Source: a virus
Length of the DNA: 64,000 nt
Virus record (IMG/VR): IMGVR_UViG_3300045988_148533
Coordinates: 32,001 to 96,000 of that record
Reading direction: 5' to 3' (one strand)
Positions 1 to 57,315 of this stretch are shown here, in pieces (position 1 is the first letter of the stretch; each line of letters opens with the position of its first letter). The notes beneath the pieces were generated by a model. It was not told the DNA's origin, made no database searches, and saw only the letters and a list, made by a program, of their open reading frames with translations. A program made the position numbers and the translations under genes.

Positions 1-727
1 TCACCTTGGAAGACATCGGACACTCCTCCAGACGTACCTTGGTGTATTTCTCACCGGAACGCTTCATTTCCTCATCGGCTTCCTTGGAAGCCTTTGCGGC
101 CTCTTCCTTCTTCTCGCGTTCCCTTTCGGCACGCATTCTTTCGGCCATCTCGTTCTTAATAGAATTCAGCAGTGCCACTTCGCGACAGCCCTGCTGTAAT
201 TCCTCAATGGAATCACTGTCCTTGGCAATTCTAATATTCTCCCTGGGGATTTCCATTAGCTCTAACAATACCTTGTCAGGCGTCTTCCTCAAGGCACCCA
301 GAACAACAGCACCCTTCTCATTGTAGAGATTCAGAATCTGAGTGGCCGTACCCCTGCCAGCCAGCACGTCCTCATCAGAAGACTGCTTCTGCCTTTCCCT
401 TATTTTCCTATTTTCAGCATAAATGCTTTCCACAAAGGCACGAGCCTTATCCCAGTCAACTCCGGCTTCTCTTACAGCACTTTCGGTAAAGGCACTGACG
501 TCAGGCTTTTCACCCTTACTTCTCTTTACAAGATGCTTCAGTTCAGGAAAGCGTGCTATTACCGCCTCCACAGGGTCAATTAGCCCATCATCCTTAACGA
601 ACTTGCTGGAGTCAAAGGGCTGTTTCTGTTGACTTTCTTTATCCACACTGGGTCGGCCATATTCCTGACCGACCCTGTGTAGCCGCCTGTTTTCTGAATT
701 ATCCTTATACCTACCGTGTGATGCCAT
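1..727 (-). CDS. hypothetical protein, C-terminus outside window; N-terminus carries the ENRRLHRVGQ motif
   Basis: Own minus-strand translation: ATG at 727-725, then MASHGRYKDNSENRRLHRVGQEYGRPSVDKE..., open to position 1. Absent from the ORF track because it runs off the edge. The upstream gene stops at 729. Confidence 0.6.
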   Translation of the reverse strand, partial: MASHGRYKDNSENRRLHRVGQEYGRPSVDKESQQKQPFDSSKFVKDDGLIDPVEAVIARFPELKHLVKRSKGEKPDVSAFTESAVREAGVDWDKARAFVESIYAENRKIRERQKQSSDEDVLAGRGTATQILNLYNEKGAVVLGALRKTPDKVLLELMEIPRENIRIAKDSDSIEELQQGCREVALLNSIKNEMAERMRAEREREKKEEAAKASKEADEEMKRSGEKYTKVRLEECPMSSKV

Positions 728-728
728 A

Positions 729-1613
729 TCAGCCGATAATTTTATTTATCCTTTCCTTAAATTCCTCTCTCTTTGCAGGGTCAACTTCCTTATACAGCTT
801 CGAAAGCAAGTCTATGGACTCATCAATTTTCCTAATTTCCTCATCACTTGCCACACCATCACTCTGCTTCCCAGGATAGGGAATGTCATCTTCAGGTTCA
901 ACACCCACTTCCTCAAGACAGCTGTCAATAATATCCTTAGGGAGCTTGAGAGCTATCTCAAATTTCTTCGCCATAGCCTCATCCTCATCCATCTCACTGA
1001 GCTTTTCCAGTGCCTCAGTGCCGAAGTTGTCCTCAATGGCTATATCCCATGCCCCCTCATCATCCACAGTACGCATGGAATCCCATATTTTCTGCTTCTC
1101 TTCAGAAGAAAAACTATTTTCACCCCTCTTTTTCTCACCACCTTCCTCATCCGTACCACCTTTCTTTCCACCGTATTCCTGTCCAACACGATGCTTTCTA
1201 CGATTTTCAGCATTGTCAACATAACGACCCTTGACAATGTCAATTAGGGACTTGGCAAGCTCATCAGAGGGTTCATAAGGCTTGCCGACACGATTCAGCT
1301 TCCTATTTTCAGGAGTGTCAGCATACGTGCCTTTCAAGGACTTCATGATGGAACCGTCCTCAGCTCTGTCAAAATTCACCTGTGACTTGCGGAAGTAGCG
1401 TACCACCTCACTGCCTGCCTCATCAATGCAGACGGCCTTCTGTAGAAAGGCTATATCGGTTGCAAACTCGTTCTTTTCTGCCTGACTGAGTTCGTTTTTT
1501 ATTGACTTCTGAAGACCCTCCCTGTAATAGGAAGCTATTTCCTCAGCAGTAAATACCTCATAGCCGTTATCAGCGGCTGTTTTTTCAAATGTTGATAGTA
1601 AAATCTTCTTCAT
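729..1613 (-). CDS. hypothetical acidic protein with two copies of the (Y)xDxxENR+xxRVGxxY motif
   Basis: 294-aa ORF. Motif copies are YADTPENRKLNRVGKPYEP (nt 1275-1325) and YVDNAENRRKHRVGQEYGG (nt 1173-1223). A promoter-like box lies upstream. Confidence 0.7.
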   Translation of the reverse strand: MKKILLSTFEKTAADNGYEVFTAEEIASYYREGLQKSIKNELSQAEKNEFATDIAFLQKAVCIDEAGSEVVRYFRKSQVNFDRAEDGSIMKSLKGTYADTPENRKLNRVGKPYEPSDELAKSLIDIVKGRYVDNAENRRKHRVGQEYGGKKGGTDEEGGEKKRGENSFSSEEKQKIWDSMRTVDDEGAWDIAIEDNFGTEALEKLSEMDEDEAMAKKFEIALKLPKDIIDSCLEEVGVEPEDDIPYPGKQSDGVASDEEIRKIDESIDLLSKLYKEVDPAKREEFKERINKIIG

Positions 1614-1632
1614 GATAAAATTGCATTTTGAG

Positions 1633-1665
1633 CAAAAGTAGTCCCTAAATAGGACTTATCCAAAT
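1633..1665 (-). promoter_or_regulatory. Bacteroidota-type promoter for 729..1613 (-7 TACTTTTG, -33 TTTGG)
   Basis: The reverse complement of 1633-1640 is TACTTTTG (TAnnTTTG). A TTTGG lies about 21 nt upstream (reverse complement of 1661-1665). The ATG is at 1613. Confidence 0.5.
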
Positions 1666-1971
1666 TTGGATTTAACATAGGGAGCCAAAGGCTGCACCGA
1701 AGTGCAGCCACGCTCCAAACACTAACTTTGATGATAGAATTTTGAAAGAACTTATATCTGAAAATCAATAACGACATATTAACGCACATTAGGAAGCCTC
1801 ATCACTCCTAACAGGTAAAGGTCTCGTCAGAGACATCTCTATGGGCGAAGTCCACCGCCTAAGTCGGTGGCGAAGCCCCCTCTGAACCCGAGCGTTAGCG
1901 AGGATGGGTAATCTGGTTTACAGCGAGTTATGTTGTAACTGATTGTTTTACAGGCAGTTTTGTTTTCGGGA

Positions 1972-2024
1972 CTCTATTTATACTTCTATTTAACCTCTAT
2001 TTATACTTCTATTTAACCTCTATT
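1972..2024. repeat. AT-rich 23-bp tandem repeat (2.3 copies), candidate DNA-unwinding element of the origin
   Basis: CTCTATTTATACTTCTATTTAAC occurs at 1972-1994 and 1995-2017, with a partial third copy at 2018-2024. Each unit contains two TCTATTTA sub-repeats. Confidence 0.75.
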
Positions 2025-2068
2025 ATGCGCGTGCGCGCGAGGCAAACTGCTGTAATACGACGCTGCTA

Positions 2069-2100
2069 AAATATTTGCCCCCTTAAGGGGGCAAATATTT
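2069..2100. repeat. perfect 32-bp palindrome AAATATTTGCCCCCTT/AAGGGGGCAAATATTT
   Basis: Read directly. The arms 2069-2084 and 2085-2100 are exact reverse complements. It could form a hairpin/cruciform or act as an operator or bidirectional terminator. Confidence 0.85.
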
Positions 2101-2148
2101 CCATATTGTGTAGTTATGCAAATTTTATTGCACGACAAAAAAACCATT

Positions 2149-2229
2149 ACCGAGGGTGAAAAACCACACTACCGAGGGTGAAAAACCACACTACCGAGGG
2201 TGAAAAACCACACTACCGAGGGTGAAAGG
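2149..2229 (+). repeat. iterons: four direct copies of ACCGAGGGTGAAA spaced by exactly 22 bp
   Basis: ACCGAGGGTGAAAAACCACACT occurs at 2149-2170, 2171-2192 and 2193-2214, with a truncated fourth copy at 2215-2229. They lie immediately upstream of the rep-like gene. Confidence 0.85.
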
Positions 2230-2242
2230 TTAAAAATTAACA

Positions 2243-2274
2243 TTTGTGTATTTAAATATTTTTATTTTACTTTG
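2243..2274 (+). promoter_or_regulatory. possible promoter of the rep-like gene (TTTG, 20 nt, TTACTTTG)
   Basis: TTTG sits at 2243-2246 and an imperfect -7 box TTACTTTG at 2267-2274. The ATG is at 2297 and the iterons abut the promoter, the layout typical of autoregulated rep genes. Confidence 0.4.
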
Positions 2275-2296
2275 CAAAAATTTAAATATTATCATC

Positions 2297-3046
2297 ATGA
2301 ATAATAAGGAAAAGAAGGTGGCTGTTGCCACTAAAGAATCAATTGGTGACATTGTTGATTACACTGTAAGGCAGAAGCGGTGCTGGGCCTTAATCGTAAG
2401 AGAGGTGAATAAATTTCTACCTAAGAATTTCTGGGAAATATGGCAGGAAGGGGACTTGGAAACAATTGAAAAGCTGCTACCGCTGAATAAATTTCATGAA
2501 TTTGAAATGGAAATAAAAGCCTCAGAAATATCCACAAGAAGTTCTATTGTTCCGACACTCGAAAAGCTACATAATACCGTTGTAAAGATTAGAGACAGAA
2601 AAGACTTGGAAGTCTTTAGCATTATTCATTCCTATGGCGTTGTAAACAACAGGTATTATATTCGCATAACTCCTCGTGTCATCATGTGGATTATAGGTGT
2701 AAGTAGGAGAAGACTTTTCACAGCCTTTCATTTGGAATCCTTTCTAAGGCTTTCCACAACATCCGCCATGAATCTATACCTGTATATAAGCGCAAACTAC
2801 AATAAAACTGAAGCTTCTCAGAAGGGAACATGGTCGGATACACTGGAAAATGTAAAAAAAGAAATGGGTATCACAAAAGATATAGATAATTACCGTTTTA
2901 TAAATGACTATCTCAAGCCTGCTGCTGCCGAATTAATCCTAAAGAATACCCACCTGAAAGTCAGGTATGAAGCACAAAAGGAAGAAGTTCCTGCCATGAA
3001 TAGACGTAAGGCATGGGACAGGATATTATTTATGATTGAAAAATAG
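2297..3046 (+). CDS. plasmid-type replication initiator (Rep_3/RepB-like winged-helix protein)
   Basis: The segment FTAFHLESFLRLSTTSAMNLYLYISANY...GTWSDTLENVKKEMGITKDIDNYRFINDYLKPAAAELI follows the Rep_3 pattern (F..f.l.....L.s.ya..LY..l......l.eLr..lg....Y..f.df...vl.pa..El). The gene sits directly after the iterons. I chose the ATG at 2297 (MNNKEKK), not the GTG at 2246. Confidence 0.6.
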   Translation: MNNKEKKVAVATKESIGDIVDYTVRQKRCWALIVREVNKFLPKNFWEIWQEGDLETIEKLLPLNKFHEFEMEIKASEISTRSSIVPTLEKLHNTVVKIRDRKDLEVFSIIHSYGVVNNRYYIRITPRVIMWIIGVSRRRLFTAFHLESFLRLSTTSAMNLYLYISANYNKTEASQKGTWSDTLENVKKEMGITKDIDNYRFINDYLKPAAAELILKNTHLKVRYEAQKEEVPAMNRRKAWDRILFMIEK

Positions 3047-3083
3047 GTTCACCGAATGCGTTAATTAACAAAAGAAAAATTAC

Positions 3084-3614
3084 ATGGGACTATACCGAAC
3101 ACAGTCATCAGCGGTTGAGAGCTCGTCACAGGAGCTGTGGGCACTTCGTCAGCGAGTGTCCATGCTCGAGAAGGAACTGCGTGACCGTGACGCTGAGCTG
3201 AATGCGCGCTGTGAGCATGAAAGAGAGCTCATGAACAGGATACACTCTCTGGAGGATGAGCTTGCTGAGCTCCAGCCTAAGAATAAGGTGGGAACACCTA
3301 AGAAATACGTTCAGGAGGCCGTGTCCACGGCTGACCTCCTGTATCCTAAGCTGGACTTCGGCTCTGGAGACCCTGTGGTGGACGCTGACTGGGAGGACTT
3401 CATGACGGTGCAGATTAGGGACTATGTCGAGCCGAACACCATTCTGAACATCATACTGTACCGAGACGTCACCGACAGAGTGTGGCGTGACCTCGGAGAC
3501 AGCTTCAACATCTGCATCCCATACCCTCTAACCAGAAGCAGACTGAAAAACATCGGTATAATAAGTTACAGTCCTACCACTGAGCAGGACTTAAATAATT
3601 TCGAGGATAACTAA
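3084..3614 (+). CDS. hypothetical protein with N-terminal coiled-coil
   Basis: 176-aa ORF with heptad-like LRQRVSMLEKELRDRDAELNARCEHERELMNRIHSLEDELAELQ. Confidence 0.55.
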   Translation: MGLYRTQSSAVESSSQELWALRQRVSMLEKELRDRDAELNARCEHERELMNRIHSLEDELAELQPKNKVGTPKKYVQEAVSTADLLYPKLDFGSGDPVVDADWEDFMTVQIRDYVEPNTILNIILYRDVTDRVWRDLGDSFNICIPYPLTRSRLKNIGIISYSPTTEQDLNNFEDN

Positions 3615-3631
3615 TAAAAACAGTAAGATTC

Positions 3632-3895
3632 ATGAAAATGTCAATCAAATGGCTTGTGTACTGCCTCATCGGGCTGTGCATAGCAGCGTTCTTCGGTATT
3701 GCACTGAGAATGCAGTTCACCGTCATGGCTCCAATCGCTATTGCAGCCATCATTGTTCTTGGAATAGAACACATGAGAAACGTCACTCCTAAGCCGACTT
3801 TCAAGTCAGCGTTCCTCAATGGAGCACTGCCTGTGCTGTTGGGCGGTCTGTACATTCAGCTGTGTCTAATTCTTGAGATATGGTGGAACGTGTGA
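3632..3895 (+). CDS. small membrane protein (about 3 TM segments; holin-like topology)
   Basis: 87 aa with hydrophobic stretches WLVYCLIGLCIAAFFGIAL, VMAPIAIAAIIVLGI and ALPVLLGGLYIQLCLIL. Confidence 0.5.
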   Translation: MKMSIKWLVYCLIGLCIAAFFGIALRMQFTVMAPIAIAAIIVLGIEHMRNVTPKPTFKSAFLNGALPVLLGGLYIQLCLILEIWWNV

Positions 3896-4206
3896 GACTT
3901 CTGCTGTGCGTCATAATAGCGTCAATAACGCTGTATGTCGCTGGATGTGGTACAGTGCCTCGGGTGCTGTACCACAGTTCCACCACGACGACCCCTGTGA
4001 CCGTTATTGACAGCCTGAACAGCATACACGGCACTCACTTCAACGAGTGGTGGAGGGGCTGGGACAGTCAGAGCTTCATAGCGAATGACTCCACCCTTGT
4101 CACTTCCTATGTGGCCACTGAACGTCATGCCGATACGCTGTACGTCATTACTGTCGTGCATACCTTCAATGATACACTTGTAACAGTTCGCTTTAGAAGA
4201 GAATAA
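3880..4206 (+). CDS. putative lipoprotein
   Basis: N-terminus MVERVRLLLCVIIASITLYVAGC has an h-region plus a lipobox-like VAGC. It overlaps the upstream ORF by 16 nt. Confidence 0.55.
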   Translation: MVERVRLLLCVIIASITLYVAGCGTVPRVLYHSSTTTTPVTVIDSLNSIHGTHFNEWWRGWDSQSFIANDSTLVTSYVATERHADTLYVITVVHTFNDTLVTVRFRRE

Positions 4207-4211
4207 CAGCC

Positions 4212-4805
4212 ATGCTTTCAACCGGATATATAAATACACCCAAGGAAATATATGAACGTCAGTCCATCCTCGAACCTACGGACAGTGCGCTGCCTGAAAG
4301 GTATCTACTCAAGAATCTGCTGCCTGTACAGAATCAGGGAAATCTGCCTGCCTGTGTGGGATATGTCATCAACGAAATGTATCAATACAGGCTTCAACTG
4401 GACGGTCTAAGTGATGCAGCACGTATAACACCGGAATACATCTATCGCAGCCGTTCCAATAGAGAGGTGGACGGTATGAATCCAGTGGATGGATTTACAA
4501 TTCTAAGGGAATCCATTTCAGATTCATTCAAACTGCATTGGGCACGACTGTCCACGGCTGCAATAAAAGAAGCCGTGATGGGGTTAGGCCCTGTGATGCT
4601 GTGCATGGCCTGTCACAGTTACAGTAAAGAATTCTGGAAAGGGGGTGGTCTTCTCGGAGGTCATGCCGTGTCCATTGTCGGGTGGAATGGCGGTAGATTC
4701 ATCCTTAAGAACTCATGGGGCACGGAATGGGCCGACGGTGGGTACACCGAGATTCTTCTTCCTGAGATTAACTCCTATGGACAGGAAATGTGGGTTCTCA
4801 TATAA
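4212..4805 (+). CDS. papain-like (C1 family) cysteine peptidase
   Basis: QGNLPACVGYV supplies the Gln and nucleophile Cys. GGHAVSIVGWNG...ILKNSWGTEWADGGY supplies His, Asn and the NSWG signature of papain-fold peptidases. Confidence 0.75.
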   Translation: MLSTGYINTPKEIYERQSILEPTDSALPERYLLKNLLPVQNQGNLPACVGYVINEMYQYRLQLDGLSDAARITPEYIYRSRSNREVDGMNPVDGFTILRESISDSFKLHWARLSTAAIKEAVMGLGPVMLCMACHSYSKEFWKGGGLLGGHAVSIVGWNGGRFILKNSWGTEWADGGYTEILLPEINSYGQEMWVLI

Positions 4806-4812
4806 AAATTCA

Positions 4813-4835
4813 GGAGGGGTGAAGCACACCCCTCC
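4813..4835. terminator. bidirectional hairpin terminator between convergent genes
   Basis: GGAGGGGTG-aagca-CACCCCTCC gives a 9-bp GC-rich stem, flanked by A/T runs on both sides. Confidence 0.65.
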
Positions 4836-4861
4836 ATTCCTATAAAATCATGTCGTGTGCA

Positions 4862-5755
4862 TCAGTAGCAGTTCACAGTCTGACTGCCGTTCTGCAGGGT
4901 GAACGGCCCATATACCCTTCCACCTGCTCCAGGTGCTGTCCACGACTCTGATGACTGAGTAAATCTTATGTAGAAAGTGCCACCCACCATGATGTTGTCC
5001 TGTGTGACCATACTCTGTGACTGACTGAAGTCATAGCCCGACAGAGTGCCTGCCCACTGTTTGATAAAGTTGTTACCCGACTTAGTCATGCCTGTAAATA
5101 GACTCTGGGCTGCTCCCGGAACGCTGTTGTCCGTGCCTATGTATGCTGCATACCATACAGCACCGCCTGTATTGGCTGTAAGGGTATAGCCTGGAGTCAC
5201 TGAGTTGGCCTTCTGGCCGAAGGTGAACCCAACCGTGGAGCCTGTCACCTTATTTGTAAAATAGTATTTGCAGGTTCTTGCAACTGTTCTACCGTTACGT
5301 GTCCATGAAATGCCTGTACTAAACTGTTTCAGAGCAGCAGTATATGTCATATTAGCGGAATCTGTCTCGTCAAATGTCACGAACGGCAGAACAGTTGCAC
5401 CTCCACTGCCTGAATTTGAGCTGATGGTAAAGTGTGCTGCGACATCCTGTGCATTGCCTCCATTTATGTACTTCTTCATGGTTGAAGCAATACATACCAT
5501 AACACTTCCGCCTGCCGCATCCAGTTCACTCATGTCCGGTCCAGGAACCACTGCTGAAAAAATGTTTACGGAGTAGTGACCGTATGTCACTGTGCCTGCG
5601 GCTTGACTTATTGATACGGTTCGGGTCAGACCGCCACCGCTGACGGTGATGGAGGTACTGCGAGAATTCTCAGTGTTATTCTGTGAAGCGGAACAGGTAA
5701 CAGTACCGTTACCGGAACCGCTGTCTGGGGTCGCTGTTATGAAACTTTTCTGCAT
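4862..5755 (-). CDS. BACON/Ig-like N-terminal domain protein, currently expressed variant (V1) of the invertible cassette locus; likely virion surface or receptor-binding protein
   Basis: The N-terminus TPDSGSGNGTVTCSASQNNTENSRSTSITVSGGGLTRTVSISQAAG resembles a BACON domain. The junction QAAGTVTYG is encoded by the 18-nt repeat. The C-terminal end YIRF...RVYGPFTLQNGSQT is shared with cassettes V2 and V3. Confidence 0.75.
   Translation of the reverse strand: MQKSFITATPDSGSGNGTVTCSASQNNTENSRSTSITVSGGGLTRTVSISQAAGTVTYGHYSVNIFSAVVPGPDMSELDAAGGSVMVCIASTMKKYINGGNAQDVAAHFTISSNSGSGGATVLPFVTFDETDSANMTYTAALKQFSTGISWTRNGRTVARTCKYYFTNKVTGSTVGFTFGQKANSVTPGYTLTANTGGAVWYAAYIGTDNSVPGAAQSLFTGMTKSGNNFIKQWAGTLSGYDFSQSQSMVTQDNIMVGGTFYIRFTQSSESWTAPGAGGRVYGPFTLQNGSQTVNCY
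5580..5604 (-). repeat. candidate recombination site A (inside V1 gene, minus orientation)
   Basis: The reverse complement is AAGCCGCAGGCACAGTGACATACGG. The 18-nt core AGCCGCAGGCACAGTGAC (5586-5603) is identical to 5972-5989 and 7195-7212. Confidence 0.8.
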
Positions 5756-5787
5756 AATCGTACGATTTTAGAATTTTATTAATAACG

Positions 5788-5795
5788 CAAAGTTA
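5788..5795 (-). promoter_or_regulatory. -7 box-like TAACTTTG upstream of the BACON-domain gene, inside the putative invertible segment
   Basis: The reverse complement of 5788-5795 is TAACTTTG, 32 nt before the ATG at 5755. No well-spaced -33 element was seen. Confidence 0.35.
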
Positions 5796-5970
5796 GAGGT
5801 TTGCATCGCAAAATAAAACTTACGGTTCAATTCACAGACGAAATGAGTCAAAATACGTCATTATACGGATTTAATTTTCATTTCCATATACATATATCAT
5901 TTATGGTGCGTAAATCCACGTATGAGCTGATTATGCACGACAGAATCCACCTATTGACATCCTTCTCCAG

Positions 5971-5995
5971 AAGCCGCAGGCACAGTGACGTATGG
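5971..5995 (+). repeat. candidate recombination site B (plus orientation, inverted relative to A)
   Basis: AAGCCGCAGGCACAGTGACGTATGG matches site A at 23 of 25 positions. Confidence 0.8.
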
Positions 5996-6674
5996 AGACT
6001 ATCAGTGTACCAACGGCAGCAGCAGTTCATGGGTGATTGACTCAGAAGGTGAAACTATCCGAGTTATTGCCAACAGCAGTAGGATAAAATACATCAACGG
6101 CAGCAGTGTCGGCCGAGAGGCGGTAAGGCCCTCGGCCAGCTTCACCTCTGGCAGTAGCATAGGAACGATTACAGTCGGTGGGCCTACGAGTGGAACCTAT
6201 GCCTACACGATTACTGTCGTGTTTGGATTCAACCCCAGTACTTCCAATCGCAACTGGGGGATAACCGTAAGCAATAGTGGAGCATCCTTCACTTTTAGCG
6301 GTTATCAGTCTCCTAAGGCAAAGTCTGGAACCATCACTTTGAACGCAGGCAGTCAGTCGTGGGTATTTGTGGGCCTGTTTGCCACGAACACAGTTGTGTC
6401 AGCCCTGCCGAGTACCTTTAACAGCCTCACACGTGATTCCGGCAGCAATACATATACCGTCAACTGGACTACAAGTATACAGGTGAATACTTATGTAGGA
6501 ACAACCGCCCATGTCACGGTAGGAAATAACTACTATGTTCGCGTCAGTCAGACTGTGAATGCATGGAATCCCACAAACAGAGTATATGGGCCTTTCGTCC
6601 TAACGGAGGGCTCTAAGACTGAAAATATATCAGGAATACCCATAGGAGGTGGAGGGATTACTCCAGTAGGTTAG
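5985..6674 (+). CDS. silent alternative C-terminal cassette V2 (no ATG, no promoter of its own)
   Basis: The frame opens only 9 codons upstream (TGA at 5955-5957) and reads EAAGTVTYGDY... through the repeat. The only start is the GTG inside the repeat. The C-terminus YYVRVSQTVNAWNPTNRVYGPFVLTEGSKT is paralogous to V1. Confidence 0.6.
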   Translation: MTYGDYQCTNGSSSSWVIDSEGETIRVIANSSRIKYINGSSVGREAVRPSASFTSGSSIGTITVGGPTSGTYAYTITVVFGFNPSTSNRNWGITVSNSGASFTFSGYQSPKAKSGTITLNAGSQSWVFVGLFATNTVVSALPSTFNSLTRDSGSNTYTVNWTTSIQVNTYVGTTAHVTVGNNYYVRVSQTVNAWNPTNRVYGPFVLTEGSKTENISGIPIGGGGITPVG

Positions 6675-7150
6675 ACTATCCTAATGTCAAACTCTCTGCT
6701 CGTCACCCTGCAGAAGTCTCCCGAGGGGGTGAGGCACCACACCTCGGTACGGTCGTCAAAATAGGAGGCGGTGAGCAGTGGCAGCATAATGGAATTGTCC
6801 ACATTCAGAAGCCCCACCTGAGACCCCTCTGGAGACATTACGACAGGAATTACACTTACATCCGCATAGCCTCCACAGCCGAAAGTGCCTTGCAGGGTAT
6901 GTCTCTTTACTGAGATAACAACCCTTTCCAGCTCCGTGGCCCTCTTGCGCTTTTCCCTGAGATAGACGGTAAGCAGCTCATTCTCAGTTATCCTTGTCTG
7001 TGTGCCGAACTTACGTGTATGGATGTTACGCAGGAGCTGTCTCTCATAGGAGTTCAGCTCCTGAAAGTCCTTCTCAAGGACTCTTATAATACTATCGTCC
7101 GTAAGGGCAGATGGATTAGCCCAACCCTGTTTCTTCTTAGTCTTCTTCAT
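6671..7150 (-). CDS. hypothetical protein located between cassettes V2 and V3
   Basis: 159-aa ORF starting MKKTKKKQGW. No recognisable motif and no recombinase signature. Confidence 0.5.
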   Translation of the reverse strand: MKKTKKKQGWANPSALTDDSIIRVLEKDFQELNSYERQLLRNIHTRKFGTQTRITENELLTVYLREKRKRATELERVVISVKRHTLQGTFGCGGYADVSVIPVVMSPEGSQVGLLNVDNSIMLPLLTASYFDDRTEVWCLTPSGDFCRVTSREFDIRIV

Positions 7151-7193
7151 AGTGTAAAAATAACGAATTCCATCCTATGCCATCCTCATTCTT

Positions 7194-7218
7194 GAGCCGC
7201 AGGCACAGTGACGTATGA
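7194..7218 (+). repeat. candidate recombination site C (plus orientation)
   Basis: GAGCCGCAGGCACAGTGACGTATGA carries the identical 18-nt core at 7195-7212. An in-frame TGA sits at 7193-7195, immediately upstream. Confidence 0.8.
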
Positions 7219-7957
7219 GTACTATTTTGATGAGGGTGAAATTCAATATGTAGTTCCATATTATTTTTCCAGTGTTGGAACTACTGCTGAAAGCCCTCTA
7301 AATGCACAGACAGGGCTCATTATGATAAACAGGGTAAAATTTGGAAACTGCAAAGTCATTAATATTGATGGTTCATTGAATAGAACTGTTGGTGTTGGAT
7401 ATTCACTGGAAAATGAAAGCATAGAAGGGTTCTTCAATGTCGGAGATGCAGGATTAGGTGGTCAGCTTCCGAATGGCTATGATGCTTATAAACTCACTGT
7501 AAGCCCCAATCCTGGAACTGCCACAAGACAGAGCAGCTTTGCTTTTGTAACAAATAGATACAGTGGGGATAAAACATCTACGCCTCTGGCAAAACTTTAT
7601 ATATCAGTACGTCAGTGCGGTACGGATGAATATCTTTTGGTTTTTGATGTTTCTAAAAAGAGCAATGTAAAGGGCCTGTGGCTGTTTGCTTCATCAAGTA
7701 TGCCCACAGGCACACCCACATCACAGAATTATTTTATGCCTGACAATCGTATTCCAGTGGATTATGTGACTTGGCATGGAGGTTCATTTGGGAATCTAAA
7801 AGTGAATGCTCTGAGCGGTTCAGCTGCTGGAACTACTGTTGCAGTTGGTTCTACTGTCTATTATAGAGTTTTATATGATGATGACAGTATGTGGGCACAG
7901 TCAGTTCTAAAAAGTTTCACACTGCTTAATTCTGACCAAAAAATAACGCTGCTTTAA
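7208..7957 (+). CDS. silent alternative C-terminal cassette V3
   Basis: It begins with the GTG inside the repeat (MTYEYY), just after a stop codon. The C-terminal end GSTVYYRV...SFTLLNSDQKITLL resembles V1 and V2. The sequence is visibly more A+T-rich than V1 and V2. Confidence 0.55.
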   Translation: MTYEYYFDEGEIQYVVPYYFSSVGTTAESPLNAQTGLIMINRVKFGNCKVINIDGSLNRTVGVGYSLENESIEGFFNVGDAGLGGQLPNGYDAYKLTVSPNPGTATRQSSFAFVTNRYSGDKTSTPLAKLYISVRQCGTDEYLLVFDVSKKSNVKGLWLFASSSMPTGTPTSQNYFMPDNRIPVDYVTWHGGSFGNLKVNALSGSAAGTTVAVGSTVYYRVLYDDDSMWAQSVLKSFTLLNSDQKITLL

Positions 7958-7961
7958 GCAT

Positions 7962-8429
7962 TCATGGAATCTGCTTTATTTTACACCGAACTGGTCCAGC
8001 TGTAAAGCCGTTCACCTTTATGTAGTTAGTGTTATTGAGCACCCACACGAGAGCCATATAGAGTGCGTCTATGAAGCATATTCCGTGAATGCTTATTAAT
8101 TCACTTGGGAAGTCCATGCTGCTGTTCAGGAACTCCATGTAGTCATAGGAGACTATATGCTCGGGGTATGATATATTTAGGAAGTACTGATGCTGCCTTT
8201 TATTGTACTCACCGACTATTTCCTGTGGAAGCAGTCTCAGGAGGTCATGAACGGTGAAGACAGGCTCGACGTGGAAGCTGAGCAGCGGTACAAGGTTGCT
8301 TTCATATATGCCGATGACTGGACTGCCTCCGCTGCCTGTACGTATGTAGAGGAGAGCCTCCCTCTTGATGTCAATACCCAGAGACTTCAGCATAAGCATC
8401 TGCTCGGGCTGTAAGTACCATTTTTCCAT
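7962..8429 (-). CDS. hypothetical protein
   Basis: 155-aa ORF in operon-like spacing with its neighbours. Confidence 0.6.
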   Translation of the reverse strand: MEKWYLQPEQMLMLKSLGIDIKREALLYIRTGSGGSPVIGIYESNLVPLLSFHVEPVFTVHDLLRLLPQEIVGEYNKRQHQYFLNISYPEHIVSYDYMEFLNSSMDFPSELISIHGICFIDALYMALVWVLNNTNYIKVNGFTAGPVRCKIKQIP

Positions 8430-8436
8430 ATTAATT

Positions 8437-8697
8437 CTATTTTACTGTAAGTGGATAGTTGTCATATATTGAAGTCCAGAATCTGCGAACGTTGGCGCAT
8501 TTTGTGCCAAATGACTCCTTCACCCACAGTTCCGTTCTGAAGTACGTACCCTCCCTTACTGTCGAGTTCCACAGCCTGAGATGAATGGCTTCGGGAGTAA
8601 TGAACCCCACTTCCTTGCCATCACATATAATCTGTGCATAGGGTGTAGGCTTCGTGGAGCCGTAGCGAACCGTCGTTCTGATTATTTCCACTGTCAT
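8437..8697 (-). CDS. hypothetical protein
   Basis: 86-aa ORF. Its start overlaps the upstream stop by 4 nt. Confidence 0.55.
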   Translation of the reverse strand: MTVEIIRTTVRYGSTKPTPYAQIICDGKEVGFITPEAIHLRLWNSTVREGTYFRTELWVKESFGTKCANVRRFWTSIYDNYPLTVK

Positions 8698-9419
8698 TTC
8701 TCAAACTTCTTACGTAACTGTTCATACTGTCTGCGCTCGGCTTTCTCCTGTGCGGCTGCAATGCGAGCCGCCTCTTCCTCCTTGTATTTCAGGTATTCCT
8801 GATGCTTCTGCGCAACATAGGAAATATGCTCCTCAGGGTGGAGGAGAAGTCTGAATGGAACCTGCACCCACTCAATGTCCTCATCAGTTTCGTAGAACAG
8901 CTTCACATCCCCACCTATGGTGCTACCCATACCCAGATACCCCTCGTAGAAGTGGATGAGGCCGACGTGGTACATCCTGTCCAGAAGCTTCTGAGCACTG
9001 TTCTCGAGCGTGCGCAGCATAGTCGCAGGCAGCATCATTTTCTCAGTAGTACTCTTCTCATTCTTATTAGCCCCATATTCAACGGTAAGAATGCTTGACT
9101 TACGCATAATGTCCTCATAGGAATGGATGCTGTCGTCACCTGTAAACTGCTTTGTCATGCGCATCCACTCCGGATTCAGCACAAATCTGTTGATACCGTT
9201 GAGGGCTGCGACAGGATAGTAGGCAATATGTGGGTCAATGCGCTCATCATTGGGCTTTAGAATGCCAGCCCAGTGGAATGTCCACCGCTGACCCTGCCTG
9301 TCCACTATAAGACCCCTTTTGGGCTGTGATGCTGCCACGTCCACGAGGCCACTGAACCACCGCTGAACAAAGTCCAGATGGGCGGTTACGTTGATTGGTG
9401 ATTTAGGTGATATTGTCAT
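8694..9419 (-). CDS. hypothetical protein with Lys/Glu-rich C-terminal helix
   Basis: 241-aa ORF. Confidence 0.65.
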   Translation of the reverse strand: MTISPKSPINVTAHLDFVQRWFSGLVDVAASQPKRGLIVDRQGQRWTFHWAGILKPNDERIDPHIAYYPVAALNGINRFVLNPEWMRMTKQFTGDDSIHSYEDIMRKSSILTVEYGANKNEKSTTEKMMLPATMLRTLENSAQKLLDRMYHVGLIHFYEGYLGMGSTIGGDVKLFYETDEDIEWVQVPFRLLLHPEEHISYVAQKHQEYLKYKEEEAARIAAAQEKAERRQYEQLRKKFEK

Positions 9420-15438: not shown

Positions 15439-15750
15439 TTAACGCTTCTTGGCGGTCTTCTTCCCCTTGGCCTCAACCTTGGGCTCCTCCTTCACCTTGT
15501 AGGTACGGCTGGACTTGAAGACGAGCCGACGTGTCTCACCGGACATGAACTTCTCCCCTGTCTGAGGGTTCAGCACCTGCCGAGGAGGTGTCACTTTCAA
15601 CTTGAACTTTCCGATAGGAGTGAGCACTTCCTCACCGCCCATCACCACATCGGGAATTACCTCGAAAATACCGTTCAGAATCTCCTCCACGTCCACTTGG
15701 GTACGCTCCAGTTTTGTGGCCACTGCTGCCACGAGTTCACTTTTTCTCAT
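15439..15750 (-). CDS. HU/IHF-family DNA-binding protein with Lys-rich C-terminal tail
   Basis: MRKSELVAAVATKLERTQVDVEEILNGIFEVI...GKFKLKVTPPRQVLNPQTGEKFMSGETRRLVFKSS shows the typical HU fold pattern, including the beta-arm R..NP.TGE. Confidence 0.85.
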   Translation of the reverse strand: MRKSELVAAVATKLERTQVDVEEILNGIFEVIPDVVMGGEEVLTPIGKFKLKVTPPRQVLNPQTGEKFMSGETRRLVFKSSRTYKVKEEPKVEAKGKKTAKKR

Positions 15751-27997: not shown

Positions 27998-29578
27998 TTA
28001 CTTCTTTTCAGGTTCTATCGCTATTGCACAGGACGTTGTCAGAAACTGCATTGTGACGGACACGGCATTTTCAAGGGCCACCCTGAACACCTTTGCAGGG
28101 TCAACGATGTTCTCGTCCTGCTCAAGGGTCTCATAGTTCAACCCCTTGTTCTCCTCGTTCATGGACATAACTATGTCATCCTCCGTAAGGGAGGCGTTCA
28201 CTGCAAGCTGATGCAGTATGCCGTACACGGCCTCCATAACGGAGCGATATCCAGCAGTGAAGCTCTCATTCCAGCCACTGTCAATATTCCTGCGAAGCAG
28301 TCCATACACAAGCAGCTGAATAACACCTCCTCCGGGAACAACCCCCTCAGCCACGGCAGCACGAACGGCTGCAACGGCATCGTCAACCCTGTCCTTGCGC
28401 TCGGCCATCTCAACCTCACTCCTTCCTCCTACCGCAATAGTGGCTGCACCGCCTGTGATGTTGGCTATTCTCTCACGACATTTCTCTTTATCGTAGGTAG
28501 AGGAGGCCGTCTCAGCCAGAGCCTCTATCTCGGCCACGGCCCTGTCAACCCTGTCAGCACTGCCACTACCGCCCACGATATTAGTGGAATTGACATTCAC
28601 GACAACCTTGTCAGCCTCGCCGAGGACGCTCATGTCAATGTTGTCAAGGGTGTACCCAGTGCCACTGCCTACCACGTCTCCTCCGGTGCGTGCAGCAAGG
28701 TCACTGAGCAGGTCTTTCTGCATGGAGCCGTATCCGGGAGCCTTCACGAAGCACGCAGACAGACCGTTCTGCTGCCTTACATTTGCCACGATGAACTGCA
28801 TTACATCGGCACTTGCATCCGGAGCAACAATCAGGAGGGAACGCTTCTCGCTGTACACCGTCTGAACTGTCGGCAGGATAGACTGCACATAGTTTATCGG
28901 CTCACTGCTTAATAGAATGTAGGGGTGATGCAGCACGCACTCCATTCTGTCACTGTTGGTTACAAAGTAGGCATTCGTCAACCCCTTGTTCCACTTAAAT
29001 CCGTTGGTGACTGTAACAGTCACACCCTCATCGCTGCCCTCCTCAACGGTAATAACACCGTAGTCACCGACACGGAACAGGGCCTCAGCCACGGCAGCAG
29101 CAGCCTCCTCATCACCGTTGGTGCTTATAAGTGCAACGCTCCTGACGGCATCCACGTCGTCGCCTGCAAGGGGTCTGGCCATGCGCTTGATTTCCTCGAC
29201 GGCAAGACTGAGGGCCTCCTGCATACCCTTGCGAAACTCCCTAACATTCAGCTTCTCTATCCCCATGGAAATGGCATTTCTAAGAATGCCGTCTGTCAGG
29301 ATTGTGGCCGTAGTCGTTCCGTCTCCGGCATCATCACAGGTTCGGGCTGCTGCGAGCTTCAGCATGGTAGCACCCATTCTCCTAACAGGGTCTTCAGTGT
29401 CGTAGGCACGTGCAACGGTCACACCGTCCTTTGTGACATGGGGTATGCCGTACCCCTTGTCTATTATTACATTGTGGCCGTAAGGGCCGAGAGTTGAGCC
29501 GACCGCCTTGGCGACCTCACTTACACCCTCATACAGGGCTGTAAGTGCCTCTCTGTCAAACAGAATCTTTACATTCAT
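27998..29578 (-). CDS. groL: GroEL/Cpn60-family chaperonin
   Basis: TLGPYGHNVIIDKGYGIPHVTKDGVTVARAYDTEDPVRRMGATMLKLAAARTCDDAGDGTTTATILT is collinear with the canonical GroEL N-terminus, including DGTTTAT. The length is 526 aa. Confidence 0.92.
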   Translation of the reverse strand: MNVKILFDREALTALYEGVSEVAKAVGSTLGPYGHNVIIDKGYGIPHVTKDGVTVARAYDTEDPVRRMGATMLKLAAARTCDDAGDGTTTATILTDGILRNAISMGIEKLNVREFRKGMQEALSLAVEEIKRMARPLAGDDVDAVRSVALISTNGDEEAAAAVAEALFRVGDYGVITVEEGSDEGVTVTVTNGFKWNKGLTNAYFVTNSDRMECVLHHPYILLSSEPINYVQSILPTVQTVYSEKRSLLIVAPDASADVMQFIVANVRQQNGLSACFVKAPGYGSMQKDLLSDLAARTGGDVVGSGTGYTLDNIDMSVLGEADKVVVNVNSTNIVGGSGSADRVDRAVAEIEALAETASSTYDKEKCRERIANITGGAATIAVGGRSEVEMAERKDRVDDAVAAVRAAVAEGVVPGGGVIQLLVYGLLRRNIDSGWNESFTAGYRSVMEAVYGILHQLAVNASLTEDDIVMSMNEENKGLNYETLEQDENIVDPAKVFRVALENAVSVTMQFLTTSCAIAIEPEKK

Positions 29579-38475: not shown

Positions 38476-39954
38476 TTAATCCACAGGCTGGCCGTCACGC
38501 AGCCATTTATTCGCCTGCATACAGTACATGGCATCTTCATGAGGGTCGTCAGTGTCCACGAGGTCATAGCCCCATCCTTCCCTCTCCTCGGGCGAGGCGG
38601 CCTGAAATCTGCGCTTGAATTCCTTGTCACTTTCATCGGGAACAAAATTCCTGAACGACTTTTCAATTTTTTCTGTCATAACAAAATCCTTTTTATTTAA
38701 AAACTGTTTAAACTTCTCCTTATCAAGAATTGCAGGTTTTTTAGTGGAATCAAAGATTAACTCTGGATTCTTACCTGTATTATCATATAACTTCACATCA
38801 TCAACAATTCCATCATTCAGTAGTCTTATAAATGTTTCAGTGGAACCCTTGTGTGTCTTAATTATTTTATCAAGAGGCACTTTTCTATTTGTTTTCTGTG
38901 CTCTTTCTTGAGCTCTCTTAATTGCTTCCTCAACAGGAATGGTAACATGAACAATCCTTGTTTCATACCCCTTATTTTTAGCTGCTAATATCTGCTTCTT
39001 CACCTTATCATAGTTGGCCAGAGTACCATCCTTAACATAATCATTTTCAGCAGCCTGTATCGCTTCTACTGCTTTTGTGGCAACTTTGCTGCTTTCATCA
39101 TGCAATCGACTGGCAGCACTATCTTTATTCTGTGCATTATAAGCCAAAAAATCAGAATAGTAGGCTTCTGTCTTAATATCATCACTGTCAACAACTACCA
39201 CTTTATTATAAAATCTATCCTTCTGCTTCAGTCCATCCAGAACAGTTGACTTTCCGGACCCTGAACCACCACCTGTAAACACGGCTATCGGCTTCTCAGG
39301 GTTATATCTCGAACTCTTAGCTACATAGGAAGCTACTATTTCACTGTTGAACTGCTGCCTGTTCTCATCGTTGGCATATTCATCCAAAGAAAAAGTGTCA
39401 TAATCAAGACCCTTCTCTTTATATTTCGCATTCTTCTCCTTCAAGTACTCATCAGGCTTCTCACCCCTATAAAACCCCCACCTCTTAAATGTCTGGCCGT
39501 GCTCCGTAACCTTACGATAGCCATAGAACACACCCTTGAATCCAAGAGTGTAATAAATCTCATTTATTGTCTGAAGTGGGTTATGCCTATTGAAATGAAT
39601 CTCATCCATAACCCTGTGAGCACTTGTTACGGAATGGTCACTGAAGCGCACCTTTGCCTCTCTGCCGTTAGCGGACACTGTATAATAAACTGATGCTCCA
39701 TTGGCAGTGCTCTCTCCGGAAGGTCTAATGCTCACACCCCTGAGATTATTGAGGAATTTCTTAGAAGAATCCTTTATCCGTGTAAGCTCAGCACGCTTTC
39801 TGTTTTCCTGCAACATCCATTCCTCTCTTTCAGCCTGTGCTCTTGTCTTATAGGGCTGGCCGACTCGATGCAGTCTGCGATTCTCAGCGTTATCAGCATA
39901 GACACCCTGTCTGGTTCTGGATTTTAATATATGTATGTCAAGTAAACTTTTCAT
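38476..39954 (-). CDS. multidomain protein: N-terminal ENRRLHRVGQ motif plus unknown domain plus Zeta-toxin-like P-loop kinase domain
   Basis: YADNAENRRLHRVGQPY lies at nt 39850-39900. The Walker A is IAVFTGGGSGSGKSTVLDGL, followed by VVVDSDDIK, as in Zeta toxin or AAA-kinase domains. The start was set to the ATG at 39954 because the promoter box at 39963-39970 lies inside the longer ORF. Confidence 0.65.
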   Translation of the reverse strand: MKSLLDIHILKSRTRQGVYADNAENRRLHRVGQPYKTRAQAEREEWMLQENRKRAELTRIKDSSKKFLNNLRGVSIRPSGESTANGASVYYTVSANGREAKVRFSDHSVTSAHRVMDEIHFNRHNPLQTINEIYYTLGFKGVFYGYRKVTEHGQTFKRWGFYRGEKPDEYLKEKNAKYKEKGLDYDTFSLDEYANDENRQQFNSEIVASYVAKSSRYNPEKPIAVFTGGGSGSGKSTVLDGLKQKDRFYNKVVVVDSDDIKTEAYYSDFLAYNAQNKDSAASRLHDESSKVATKAVEAIQAAENDYVKDGTLANYDKVKKQILAAKNKGYETRIVHVTIPVEEAIKRAQERAQKTNRKVPLDKIIKTHKGSTETFIRLLNDGIVDDVKLYDNTGKNPELIFDSTKKPAILDKEKFKQFLNKKDFVMTEKIEKSFRNFVPDESDKEFKRRFQAASPEEREGWGYDLVDTDDPHEDAMYCMQANKWLRDGQPVD

Positions 39955-39962
39955 ATCCGAGG

Positions 39963-40012
39963 CAAATATAGTCAATAATTACGATTACTCCAAGAAAATT
40001 CTCGATTAATCC
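39963..40012 (-). promoter_or_regulatory. conserved phage promoter placed only 8 nt from the ATG (near-leaderless transcript?)
   Basis: The reverse complement of 39963-39970 is TATATTTG. CTCCAAGAAAATTCTCGATTAATC follows after a 20-nt spacer. Confidence 0.55.
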
Positions 40013-50127: not shown

Positions 50128-51220
50128 CCCCCACCATTACTGATGGGGGCATAACATCAGGCAGGGATACCGGAACGAATCCCTGCCTGAACTCCTTTTC
50201 AATTTTTACTATTTTCGACATACTTAAAAAATTTACCTATCTGCCCTGAATATAACCCCATTTCCTTCATACCATTAGAATCATACCCCTGTTTCCAAAG
50301 CTGAACCATGCGGTATGCACCATAATATTTGGAGTCACACTCATTTAATATATAACGTTCTATCTCCTTTTGCGTAGACAATTTTCTGTCCGAAATTAAA
50401 TATCTATATTTACGAATTTTCTTCAACCCATACATTCCAAGAAAATCCGCTTCACGCATATAACTGTAAAAATTACATTCCCCTGTCCATAAATCATACA
50501 CCCAACATGATTTCGCCTTCACATTTTTACCGCCCTTGCTTTTACCATTCTCCCTTCTCTTAATGGAAAGATTTTTCTTTTGTTCATCAGTCCATCTACG
50601 ACCATAATTAGGATTGGTCTCACCCTCAAAACGCGGAGGAAGCCCACCTCCCACCATCATATTTAAAACATCTGGTCGAGAAATAAAGGCCTCATCCACA
50701 ATCCTCGCTTCGGACTCTAAAGCATCCTTAATGGAATGAAAATAACAAATAATCCTCTTTTTAAAATTCAAGTACCCATATTGTAGCAATGCTTTTCTAA
50801 ATTTCGTTTCCTTCTCCTTATGACGTTTATATAAAACACCGCTTTTCCTTATTAAACACCCATTCCCTATATAAGTGTCAAATTCCGGGTGTAACCCCTT
50901 ATAAACCCTGACACCAATATAAATATCATTAGTTATTACACACTTGGTTTCGTACAAATAAACCACGCGACGACCACCCAAATCAACGGGTATTTCAGAA
51001 TAATTAATACACTTGCTTAAATAGTCCATAATTCAATAAATTTAAGCAAACACTAAAGTCAAAATCAATAAGCAAGCAATTCGTCATTGACTTTAAAATC
51101 CTTTGCCTTGGCAATTATCTTATTTCCACCCCTGAACAAAACAAGTTCTTTATTTTCATCAAATTCCAAGATTCTGCCATTATCAAGAGTAATTTTAACA
51201 ATATTCTGCTTACGTACATA
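50128..51220 (-). mobile_element. intervening sequence in dnaE (probable group I intron, boundaries +/- about 5 nt) carrying a GIY-YIG homing endonuclease gene
   Basis: The exon 1 frame reads ...LLFERFLNKGRVG and then diverges from DnaE. The exon 2 frame resumes at (G)RSEIDVDF. Candidate splice points follow a U (51221 or 51225) and a G (50128 or 50126). Two strong hairpins lie in the 3' part at 50163-50194 and 50128-50151. Confidence 0.55.
50199..51029 (-). CDS. GIY-YIG homing endonuclease (I-TevI-like)
   Basis: VVYLYETKCVITNDIYIGV is the GIY-x10-YIG element, with conserved Arg and Glu downstream (FRKAL, ESEARIV). The C-terminal part is a basic, NUMOD-like linker region. The gene is A+T-rich. 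Confidence 0.8.
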   Translation of the reverse strand: MDYLSKCINYSEIPVDLGGRRVVYLYETKCVITNDIYIGVRVYKGLHPEFDTYIGNGCLIRKSGVLYKRHKEKETKFRKALLQYGYLNFKKRIICYFHSIKDALESEARIVDEAFISRPDVLNMMVGGGLPPRFEGETNPNYGRRWTDEQKKNLSIKRRENGKSKGGKNVKAKSCWVYDLWTGECNFYSYMREADFLGMYGLKKIRKYRYLISDRKLSTQKEIERYILNECDSKYYGAYRMVQLWKQGYDSNGMKEMGLYSGQIGKFFKYVENSKN

Positions 51221-52675: not shown

Positions 52676-53319
52676 CTGTACATTTCTACTCTTGCCTGAA
52701 TAATATCCGTAACATCATCACCGTCATGACGGCCTATCCCAATCAGTGACTGAGCCAGACGCTCACTCTCATGATTGTTAATCTCATAAGCATCAGAATG
52801 ATAGTCACACAGTATAATCTGTGCCTCCTTACCTGTTTCAGCTGCTACCCTGAACATCTCCTTAGCTTCATATATGAAGCGTAGGCTCCCGAAGAGTATG
52901 TCACAGTTATCACGCTCAACCTCAGGCATTTTGGCAAACTTAGCAAGTGCTCTGTCCGCTGCCGTTCTCGCCCAGACATCATCGCCTGCAAGATGCTTTA
53001 TCTCTTCACCGACACGCTGCAACAGCTCTCTGCCTGTAACGGATACTGAAGCCAGAGAGCCTCCGCTGCAGAAGTCGTATGGCTTGTGTGGGAGGTAAAC
53101 AGTACTGCGCATCTTCTTCCACATAGCATATTCCTGACTGAGAGTATTCACAGGCATTCTATTACCTGTGATGACGAAATACACGAAATCTCTTATTGCA
53201 TCAGAAAAATCCACCTCTATAACAGAACGACCCTCAATAGCAGCCTTCTGCCTGTAAAGATTGGCGGTGTATGACTTACCACCGCCAATCACACCTATGA
53301 ATCCATAAACCTTACTCAT
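52663..53319 (-). CDS. P-loop nucleotide kinase (dNMP kinase-like)
   Basis: The Walker A is GFIGVIGGGKSYTANLY. Size and context fit a phage deoxynucleotide monophosphate kinase. The start was set to the ATG at 53319. Confidence 0.55.
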   Translation of the reverse strand: MSKVYGFIGVIGGGKSYTANLYRQKAAIEGRSVIEVDFSDAIRDFVYFVITGNRMPVNTLSQEYAMWKKMRSTVYLPHKPYDFCSGGSLASVSVTGRELLQRVGEEIKHLAGDDVWARTAADRALAKFAKMPEVERDNCDILFGSLRFIYEAKEMFRVAAETGKEAQIILCDYHSDAYEINNHESERLAQSLIGIGRHDGDDVTDIIQARVEMYRWKN

Positions 53320-54942: not shown

Positions 54943-54944
54943 AA

Positions 54945-56700: not shown

Positions 56701-56704
56701 GATG

Positions 56705-57295: not shown

Positions 57296-57315
57296 AATCG
57301 TTTTTGTTTGTGATG

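Follow-up and report, generated by a model that had tools for sequence, protein, structure and literature searches.

A probable iteron-type replication origin and its Rep_3-family initiator in a ~100-kb gut phage

The stretch of viral DNA analyzed here (64,000 nt, positions 32,001 to 96,000 of IMG/VR record IMGVR_UViG_3300045988_148533; hereafter, the window) carries, at positions 1972 to 3046, a series of intergenic repeats followed by an open reading frame (ORF) for a protein of 249 amino acids (aa), named rep. This segment belongs to a ~100-kb gut phage with an SPO1-like backbone. An original prediction, made from the sequence alone, had described it as a complete iteron-type plasmid origin, and the AT-rich repeat, GC-rich tract, 32-bp palindrome, four 22-bp iterons, and 249-aa ORF on which it was built are all present where it had placed them:

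1972–2024 (+): AT-rich repeat element, four copies of TCTATTTA plus a partial copy at 11- to 12-bp spacing
2025–2040 (no strand): alternating purine-pyrimidine GC-rich tract, ATGCGCGTGCGCGCGA, read directly from the sequence
2069–2100 (no strand): perfect 32-bp palindrome, AAATATTTGCCCCCTT/AAGGGGGCAAATATTT, from the repeat scan and folding
2137–2227 (+): iteron array of four 22-bp units (AAAAACCACAC TACCGAGGGTG), from the repeat scan
2228–2296 (+): AT-rich rep promoter region with a Bacteroidota-type −7 box, from motif, stability, and conservation
2297–3046 (+): rep, 249-aa Rep_3-family initiator with two winged-helix domains, from Pfam, PHROG, profiles, and Foldseek

The order of these elements (AT-rich repeats, palindrome, 22-bp iterons, promoter, rep) matches that of classical iteron origins, as had been proposed.

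Repeat architecture and the Rep protein

The AT-rich element is built from CTCTATTTATACTTCTATTTAAC, present twice at 100% identity (1972–2017), with a third, partial copy running to 2024 (repeat scan); the shorter motif TCTATTTA starts at 1973, 1985, 1996, and 2008 and is followed by TCTATT at 2019. Six exact copies of this 8-mer occur in the 64 kb, versus 2.1 expected, and four of the six fall within the element. The iteron array holds four exact copies of TACCGAGGGTGAAA (at 2148, 2170, 2192, and 2214) with a period of 22 bp, and neither further exact or one-mismatch copies nor a second iteron cluster or control iteron array were found in the 64-kb window. Each unit consists of an A-tract and then a conserved core, TACCGAGGGTGAAAAA; a tract of five to seven A residues is present in every iteron, which places the tracts in phase at two helical turns. 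From their sequence, the iterons are predicted to be binding sites for Rep monomers. Because the iterons are unique, TCTATTTA is enriched, and the palindrome folds as single-stranded DNA at −14.4 kcal/mol (z = −5.5), the arrangement of repeats, palindrome, and iterons at 1972–2227 is not due to chance.

A nearest-neighbor stability scan in 40-bp windows over the whole 64 kb (~12,800 windows sampled; mean, −53.3 kcal/mol; standard deviation, 4.2) located the least stable duplex of the entire stretch (−38.5 kcal/mol) within 2231–2290, between the last iteron and the rep ATG. The TCTATTTA element has a stability of −39.2 kcal/mol per 40 bp, and both segments flanking the iterons rank in the 25 least stable of the windows sampled, such that a candidate AT-rich unwinding element of the kind expected beside an array is present on either side of it. 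We regard 1972–2024 as a candidate DNA unwinding element (DUE) that would also supply candidate single-strand binding motifs for Rep, and 2228–2296 as a second candidate; the GC-rich alternating tract may form a boundary to unwinding. The palindrome lies inside the ~110-bp spacer between the TCTATTTA element and the first iteron unit and may be a dimer-binding or cruciform site. Its use as a Rep-dimer operator was dropped in view of its lack of any sequence relation to the iterons, as was a role as transcription terminator: it is flagged by a terminator scan, but it lies between divergent gene sets, with nothing obvious to terminate. The promoter-like element that had been noted after the iterons corresponds to the −7 box TTACTTTG, which matches TAnnTTTG at seven of eight positions, lies 22 nt before the rep ATG, and is separated from the end of the array by ~45 bp.

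The rep ORF extends from an ATG at 2297 to a stop at 3046, and its homologues start at the same methionine. The Joint Genome Institute (JGI) annotation reads "hypothetical protein," and NCBIfam yielded no meaningful match for Rep or nine neighboring proteins. Residues 65–164 match Pfam Rep3_N (PF01051, the first winged-helix domain, WH1) at 28.0 bits (curated cut-off, 22.4), and the protein matches PHROG 4402, "replication initiation protein," at 6e-10. Searched singly against the PDB (phmmer), the Rep sequence has no match; a profile of eight homologues recovers the structure of R6K pi on its iteron (2NRA; 6e-5), with both domains covered and the match extending to position 227 of the 253 in the profile. 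With an AF2 model of Rep (pLDDT, 77.9) as the query, Foldseek ranks 1 to 45 are all RepE54, pi, or Rep-DUE complexes (probability, 0.99–1.0). Alignment by hhalign of the 21-member Rep subfamily profile with 41 classical Rep_3 proteins gives a probability of 99.9% and E = 2.6e-36 over residues 4–249 and reveals an N-terminal insertion of ~25 aa specific to this phage lineage. Across the subfamily, Rep3_N is matched by 16 of the 21 members and Rep3_C by 17. The profile searches and structure prediction of 2297–3046 that had been suggested as checks were thus carried out and returned similarity to initiator families, and the assignment to Rep_3 holds up in Pfam, PHROG, the PDB profile, Foldseek, and hhalign alike. 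Judged from these comparisons, Rep is a divergent member of the Rep_3 initiator family.

Co-variation of Rep and iterons across the lineage

Only 21 representatives of the Rep subfamily were recovered at E ≤ 1e-10 among 1.84 billion proteins, and the subfamily seems, as far as sampled, to be small and restricted to this lineage of phages. One gene neighborhood was common to each of the nine members (21 to 100% identity) for which contigs were consulted: the portal and other structural genes point leftward, and rep opens the rightward genes and precedes small ORFs, a papain-like peptidase, and a BACON protein; where the rep-carrying contigs are long, they are phage contigs of 98 to 103.5 kb. 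Because gene order is the same at Rep identities from 100% down to 21%, these sequences indicate that the Rep_3 module has probably been inherited vertically over a long time.

Directly upstream of rep, the members examined carry a tandem array whose period is always 21 to 22 bp, and arrays equivalent to 2137–2227 were found in eight other lineages. The units, with the identity of the accompanying Rep, are as follows (related loci bear L numbers; L001–L003 match the window throughout the 8 kb that were compared, starting at rep):

Window and L001–L003: Rep 100%; core TACCGAGGGTGAAAAA, variable half CCACAC; 4 copies (2 in L001)
L008–L011: Rep 90%; core TACCGAGGGTGAAAAA, variable half AACCAT; 3 to 4 copies
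L024–L028: Rep 77–79%; core TACCGAGGGTGAAAAA, variable half GGGTAC; 1 to 3–4 copies, most of these contigs beginning inside or after the array
L004: Rep 35–36%; unit TGAAAAAATACATCTTAACGC; 4 copies
L014: Rep 30%; unit GGTAAAAAACCTCATAAATCGG; 3 copies
L016 and L017: Rep 27%; unit AAGCATTTAGCCCCCTTTTTG; about 7 copies
L018 and L019: Rep 25%; unit GTCATTTCGGGGTGAGTACGGG; at least 3 copies, beside an assembly gap

Where Rep is at least 77% identical, the iteron core is retained and the other half of the unit varies; in the four lineages whose Rep is 25 to 36% identical, the iteron sequence is wholly replaced, and the 21- to 22-bp period and the position are retained. Further upstream, by 100 to 200 bp, TCTATTT-type AT-rich 11- to 12-mers are similar in the distant L004, L014, L016, and L018. 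The pattern is as expected of a lineage-specific initiator/iteron pair combined with a common unwinding element, and it suggests that the pairing of Rep with iteron sequence is specific. We take this co-variation as the strongest evidence that the two probably form an initiator-origin pair.

The remaining elements are conserved to different depths. The GC-rich tract is kept in L008, L009, and L026, with substitutions that preserve the alternation, and is absent in distant lineages. The palindrome is identical in L001, L008, and L009, and in L026 its arms are shorter by one base each and still form an inverted repeat; L004 and L014 have different inverted repeats at this position, and in most lineages some inverted repeat lies between the AT-rich 11- to 12-mers and the iteron array. 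At the promoter, the motif ACTTTG[CT]AAAAATTT is kept in L008, L026, L024, and L004, and TAnnTTTG is exact in L004 and L014.

Two further conserved structures lie to the left of the AT-rich repeats:

1820–1835 (no strand): hairpin 1 (GGTCTC-GTCA-GAGAC), with compensatory changes
1843–1878 (no strand): hairpin 2 (CCACCG-CCTAAGT-CGGTGG), bracketed by the repeat GGCGAAG

In L026, two pairs of each stem are altered on both sides relative to the window with pairing intact (hairpin 2 becoming CCGCTG...CAGCGG), and a GTCA-loop stem like that of hairpin 1 recurs in the distant lineages L004 and L014. Counterparts of the region, whose hairpins are GC rich, lie at 2515–2612 in L026, 9590–9695 in L004, and 7600–7700 in L014. 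The hairpins at 1820–1878 may act in priming, delimit the unwinding region, or form the leader of the leftward operon; a search of Rfam with positions 1 to 9000 of the window gave no match.

Phage origin or plasmid module

The original prediction had pointed to DnaE, a DnaB-like helicase, primase, ligase, and RNase H, and the same genome does encode them, with DnaE split and the ligase being an NAD-ligase. The components that bear most directly on replication from the repeat region, together with an HU-like protein, are the following:

59285–60835 (−): DnaB-like replicative helicase (Pfam DnaB_C, 1.4e-7)
58267–59295 (−): DNA primase (PHROG 47, 4e-19)
51065–52675 and 48106–50082 (−): split DnaE polymerase, with a homing-endonuclease ORF at 50199–51029 between the parts
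15439–15750 (−): HU-like DNA-bending protein (Pfam Bac_DNA_binding; located by tblastn with the L004 HU-like protein)

RecA, SbcCD-like proteins, UvrD-like and SNF2 helicases, and a ribonucleotide reductase are encoded in the window as well.

We consider it likely that 1972–3046 is the phage's own replication origin together with its initiator gene, and there is good support for identifying an origin and its initiator here. One origin is enough to account for the data, because a phage with its own replisome still needs an origin-binding initiator; no other initiator candidate and no second initiator family were found in the window. Initiators of this family attach to iterons as monomers, open the unwinding element, and interact with DnaB (PMC4980987); RepE engages iterons and T-rich unwinding-element 8-mers at once in a loop-back complex that has a hypothetical HU site between the two (PMC10602881). 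By extension, rep would be transcribed from the AT-rich promoter at 2228–2296 as the first gene of the rightward module, and Rep monomers would bind the four in-phase 22-bp iterons, forming a bent nucleoprotein complex that melts one of the two very unstable flanks. The likelier melting site would be the TCTATTTA element at 1972–2024, which the complex would reach by a loop back across the spacer that holds the palindrome, possibly with the assistance of the phage HU-like protein, whose role as an architectural factor at the origin is suggested by analogy to the RepE complex. At the opened origin, Rep would recruit the DnaB-like helicase as its client, along with the primase and DnaE. Rounds dependent on the origin would occur early, with bulk replication later probably becoming recombination dependent via RecA and the SbcCD-like proteins; the "two modes" proposed originally may correspond to these early and late phases. 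Since the array ends ~45 bp upstream of the −7 box, binding of Rep probably also regulates rep transcription.

Several observations weigh against this assignment. The ~110 bp between the TCTATTTA element and the first iteron unit exceed the classical plasmid distance, no DnaA boxes were found in the intergenic region (1790–2296), and GC skew tracks gene orientation, providing no independent origin signal; involvement of host DnaA and the use of skew as origin evidence were dropped on these grounds. Foldseek aligns the Rep model to RepE and pi with TM-scores of only 0.30 to 0.35 (root-mean-square deviation, ~14 Å), because of which the relative arrangement of the domains is not confirmed by the model, though the model supports the same fold class as in RepE and pi. 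Taken alone, the window Rep passes the Pfam cut-off for WH1 only and stays below that of Rep3_C (PF21205), the second winged-helix domain being seen through profiles, namely, the Rep3_C matches of the subfamily, hhalign, and the profile match to pi. Copy-number-controlled plasmids are the typical setting of iteron systems, making a plasmid-type maintenance role possible. Finally, relatives L020 to L023 (IMG/VR; portal, 56 to 57% identical) have no Rep_3 gene within 10 kb of the portal, because of which the module would mark a subclade rather than being universal, as fits the mosaic distribution that replication modules usually have among phages.

Two side observations adjoin these points. DnaA-box-like 9-mers (TTATCCACA, ≤1 mismatch) number 35 in the whole window, versus 18.6 expected, a count reached in 0 of 100 shuffles; 29 of the 35 are on the plus strand and none is in the origin intergenic region, and the excess may be a codon or skew effect. 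In L020, a 415-aa protein with an HTH_36 domain is encoded (6888–8497) beside the equivalent divergent intergenic region, which holds ATAGGG-type repeats, and gene and repeats may together be an alternative origin module.

The original prediction went further and read the element as a phage-plasmid with two replication modes, in which the Rep_3/iteron module would maintain a low-copy extrachromosomal prophage or carrier-state episome via the host replisome and the phage replisome would serve a separate, lytic mode. Phage P1, whose plasmid state uses the iteron-binding RepA, offers a precedent. Rep_3 with iterons is overwhelmingly a plasmid module (a classical Rep_3 protein, P0030, matches 2,905 plasmid records versus 2 of 50,697 phage records), iteron handcuffing is a device of copy control (PMC7329326), and a phage-plasmid lifestyle has been proposed for crAssphage, also a Bacteroidota phage, but with RepL rather than Rep_3 (PMC10983915). 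Structural genes and a plasmid-type replication module do share one replicon here (portal, capsid, large terminase [TerL], and Rep_3 on ~100-kb contigs), and, as expected of a nonintegrating temperate element, no integrase family turned up in the 92 predicted window proteins or in the records for ~19 kb of flanks. The same coverage (the remaining ~21 to 25 kb, probably tail genes, lie outside it) is equally devoid of ParA/ParB-type partition, resolvase, repressor-type helix-turn-helix, and antitoxin families, and the window holds no second origin, initiator, or control iteron array. Two scans of JGI metagenome contigs aimed at the remaining part of the genome gave no hits, and the exact TerL sequence has no database record. 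No relatives of Rep were found in 72,556 plasmid records (PLSDB, tblastn) or, by pattern search, in 185,579 GTDB species-representative genomes (a weak negative, the host being probably uncultured); tblastn of Rep against phage records and Rep patterns in IMG/VR gave no match either.

The company kept by the module also speaks against plasmid carriage. The portal is nearest to those of Chryseobacterium phage MA9V-3 and Bacteroides phages DAC16-23 and SJC03, followed by SPO1-like Herelleviridae, all of which are lytic myoviruses. A cluster at 52663–57799 (−) includes a candidate dUMP hydroxymethylase resembling thymidylate synthase (53842–54942), a dNMP kinase (52663–53337), a 5-hydroxymethyldeoxyuridine (5-hmdU) DNA kinase (54945–56066), an HMUD2 kinase (positioned by synteny with L012), a YfbR/HD 5′-deoxynucleotidase (HD dNMPase), and a dCTP deaminase/dUTPase; the genome has two 5-hmdU DNA kinases. 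The gene content of the cluster implies noncanonical thymidine in virion DNA and points to wholesale thymidine replacement, which we infer would be difficult to square with quiet carriage; phages that replace thymidine and have an SPO1-like backbone are expected to be virulent. The phage-plasmid reading is therefore not supported, and we hold it unlikely. Also unlikely is the broader proposition that a whole clade of such ~100-kb gut phages can persist as iteron-controlled low-copy episomes devoid of any recognizable partition or immunity system; if true, it would represent a new phage-plasmid or carrier-state type, in which Rep_3 switches between copy-controlled maintenance and run-away lytic replication by the phage replisome.

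Very improbable, in our estimation, is a scheme in which Rep has been co-opted to regulate transcription, with the repeats as operators of divergent early and late promoters and replication starting elsewhere, for example by recombination or from R-loops. The array does adjoin the rep promoter on its upstream side, within the main divergent intergenic region, dimers of Rep_3 proteins are known to repress their own genes (PMC7329326), and L020 to L023 manage without Rep_3. Direct repeats with a two-turn period nevertheless reflect the monomer, or initiator, mode of binding, repressor sites in the family being inverted repeats (PMC7329326), and palindrome and iterons have no sequence in common; conserved AT-rich repeats and extreme instability on both flanks would have no role in a purely transcriptional model. 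The original claim that the origin is the only strand switch of the window did not stand, since several more occur at ~4.8 to 8 kb (gene calls; loci matching the window over 8 kb), and the origin is instead its main divergent point.

That the module is a recently acquired plasmid fragment or integrated parasitic element, or that the array is a physical genome end or packaging site, we find barely credible. Rep_3 is rare in phages, and at least 10 contigs begin inside or just upstream of the array (L002, L003, L010, L011, L015, L017, L019, L024, L025, and L028). The constancy of gene order over the full range of Rep identities argues for long vertical inheritance, however, and no transposase or integrase was found flanking the rep module. 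The contigs break at different positions within the array, which six long ones traverse (L001, L004, L008, L009, L014, and L016), while L018 spans its position with a run of N beside it; a physical end was dropped on account of the read-through contigs, and the contig starts are repeat-induced assembly breaks at a tandem repeat rather than molecular ends, which fits a circular or concatemeric assembly map. Copy number differs between L001 (two iterons) and the window (four) although both match over the 8 kb compared, and iteron counts taken from assemblies may be unreliable.

Elsewhere in the genome, the module rightward of rep contains a coiled-coil protein (3084–3614) and the papain-like C1 peptidase (4212–4805), with the BACON-domain protein (4862–5755) on the strand opposite to the rep module; the order of rep, small ORFs, peptidase, and BACON is kept down to the most distant lineage, L029. 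Because BACON-domain genes are present, the host is probably a member of the Bacteroidota. Of the DnaE halves, the one at 51065–52675 has the PHP domain and N-terminal part and the one at 48106–50082 the fingers and helix-hairpin-helix part; the gene could be interrupted by an intron or intein-like element, or it could encode a polymerase that is truly split. The large terminase (60860–63976, −) has Hint, intein splicing, and LAGLIDADG domains inserted ahead of its Terminase_6C nuclease domain, and a relative carries a 1118-aa version of this intein-containing protein. A GroEL-type chaperonin is encoded at 27998–29578 (−; Cpn60_TCP1, 1e-52). The sole Zeta_toxin match in the window, where no antitoxin family was detected, falls within residues 224–403 of a 499-aa protein (38476–39975, −) that also has P-loop kinase (AAA_33) matches, and a separate window protein matches the PNK3P phosphatase family, which suggests RNA or DNA end repair rather than a toxin-antitoxin pair. 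A tRNA scan of the window found none, and megablast of positions 1 to 8000 against phage records gave no match.

These results provide a precisely mapped and comparatively validated origin/initiator pair for an uncultured clade of large gut phages, with several natural Rep/iteron specificity variants that we expect might yield replicons for Bacteroidales or Prevotella genetics. They show Rep_3 initiators, whose deposited records are almost exclusively from plasmids, as a vertically inherited gene in a large-phage lineage, and they raise the question of whether a Rep_3 protein can load a phage-encoded DnaB-like helicase. They also caution that a plasmid-type Rep gene alone is insufficient for calling a phage a phage-plasmid.

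Comparison with known systems

The system adds a new and divergent member, apparently restricted to phages, to a well-known class of initiator/iteron pairs. Like the phage origin, that of the Pseudomonas savastanoi plasmid pPS10 has an adjacent AT-rich region and then a GC-rich region. It likewise has four contiguous 22-bp iterons (PMC7329326) beside a gene for a small initiator of the Rep_3 type with two winged-helix domains. Its RepA and the phage Rep have no detectable pairwise sequence similarity, and, unlike pPS10, the phage origin lacks a DnaA box and an inverted half-iteron operator at the rep promoter, its replicon being a ~100-kb phage with its own helicase, primase, and polymerase.

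Structurally and by profile, Rep is matched best by RepE of mini-F (ori2, or oriS) and pi of R6K (gamma ori), both of which bind direct repeats as monomers, although identity to the phage Rep in structural alignments is 13 to 20%. The phage parallels the RepE loop-back complex (PMC10602881) in having four TCTATTTA 8-mers, four iterons, and an HU-like gene; unlike in these systems, its AT-rich repeats lie ~110 bp from the array and Rep has the ~25-aa N-terminal insertion, and, unlike in mini-F, no incC-type control iterons follow rep.

Among phages, two comparisons are instructive. P1 resembles the present system in its iteron-binding RepA with two winged-helix domains, its iterons immediately upstream of the gene at oriR, and its myovirus genome of ~94 kb. 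However, P1 (for background, see PMC10983915) has ParAB/parS, an addiction module, immunity regulators, an incA control array, and a separate lytic origin with RepL, and none of these partition, addiction, immunity, control-array, or lytic-origin features was found in the phage window. At ori-lambda, the phage initiator O, four tandem iterons beside an AT-rich region, and recruitment of DnaB serve lytic theta replication. Lambda differs from the phage Rep system in that its iterons are internal to the O gene, O falls outside the Rep_3 family, and the host helicase is borrowed through P; for the explanation proposed here, lambda O and its origin would still be the closest functional analogy.

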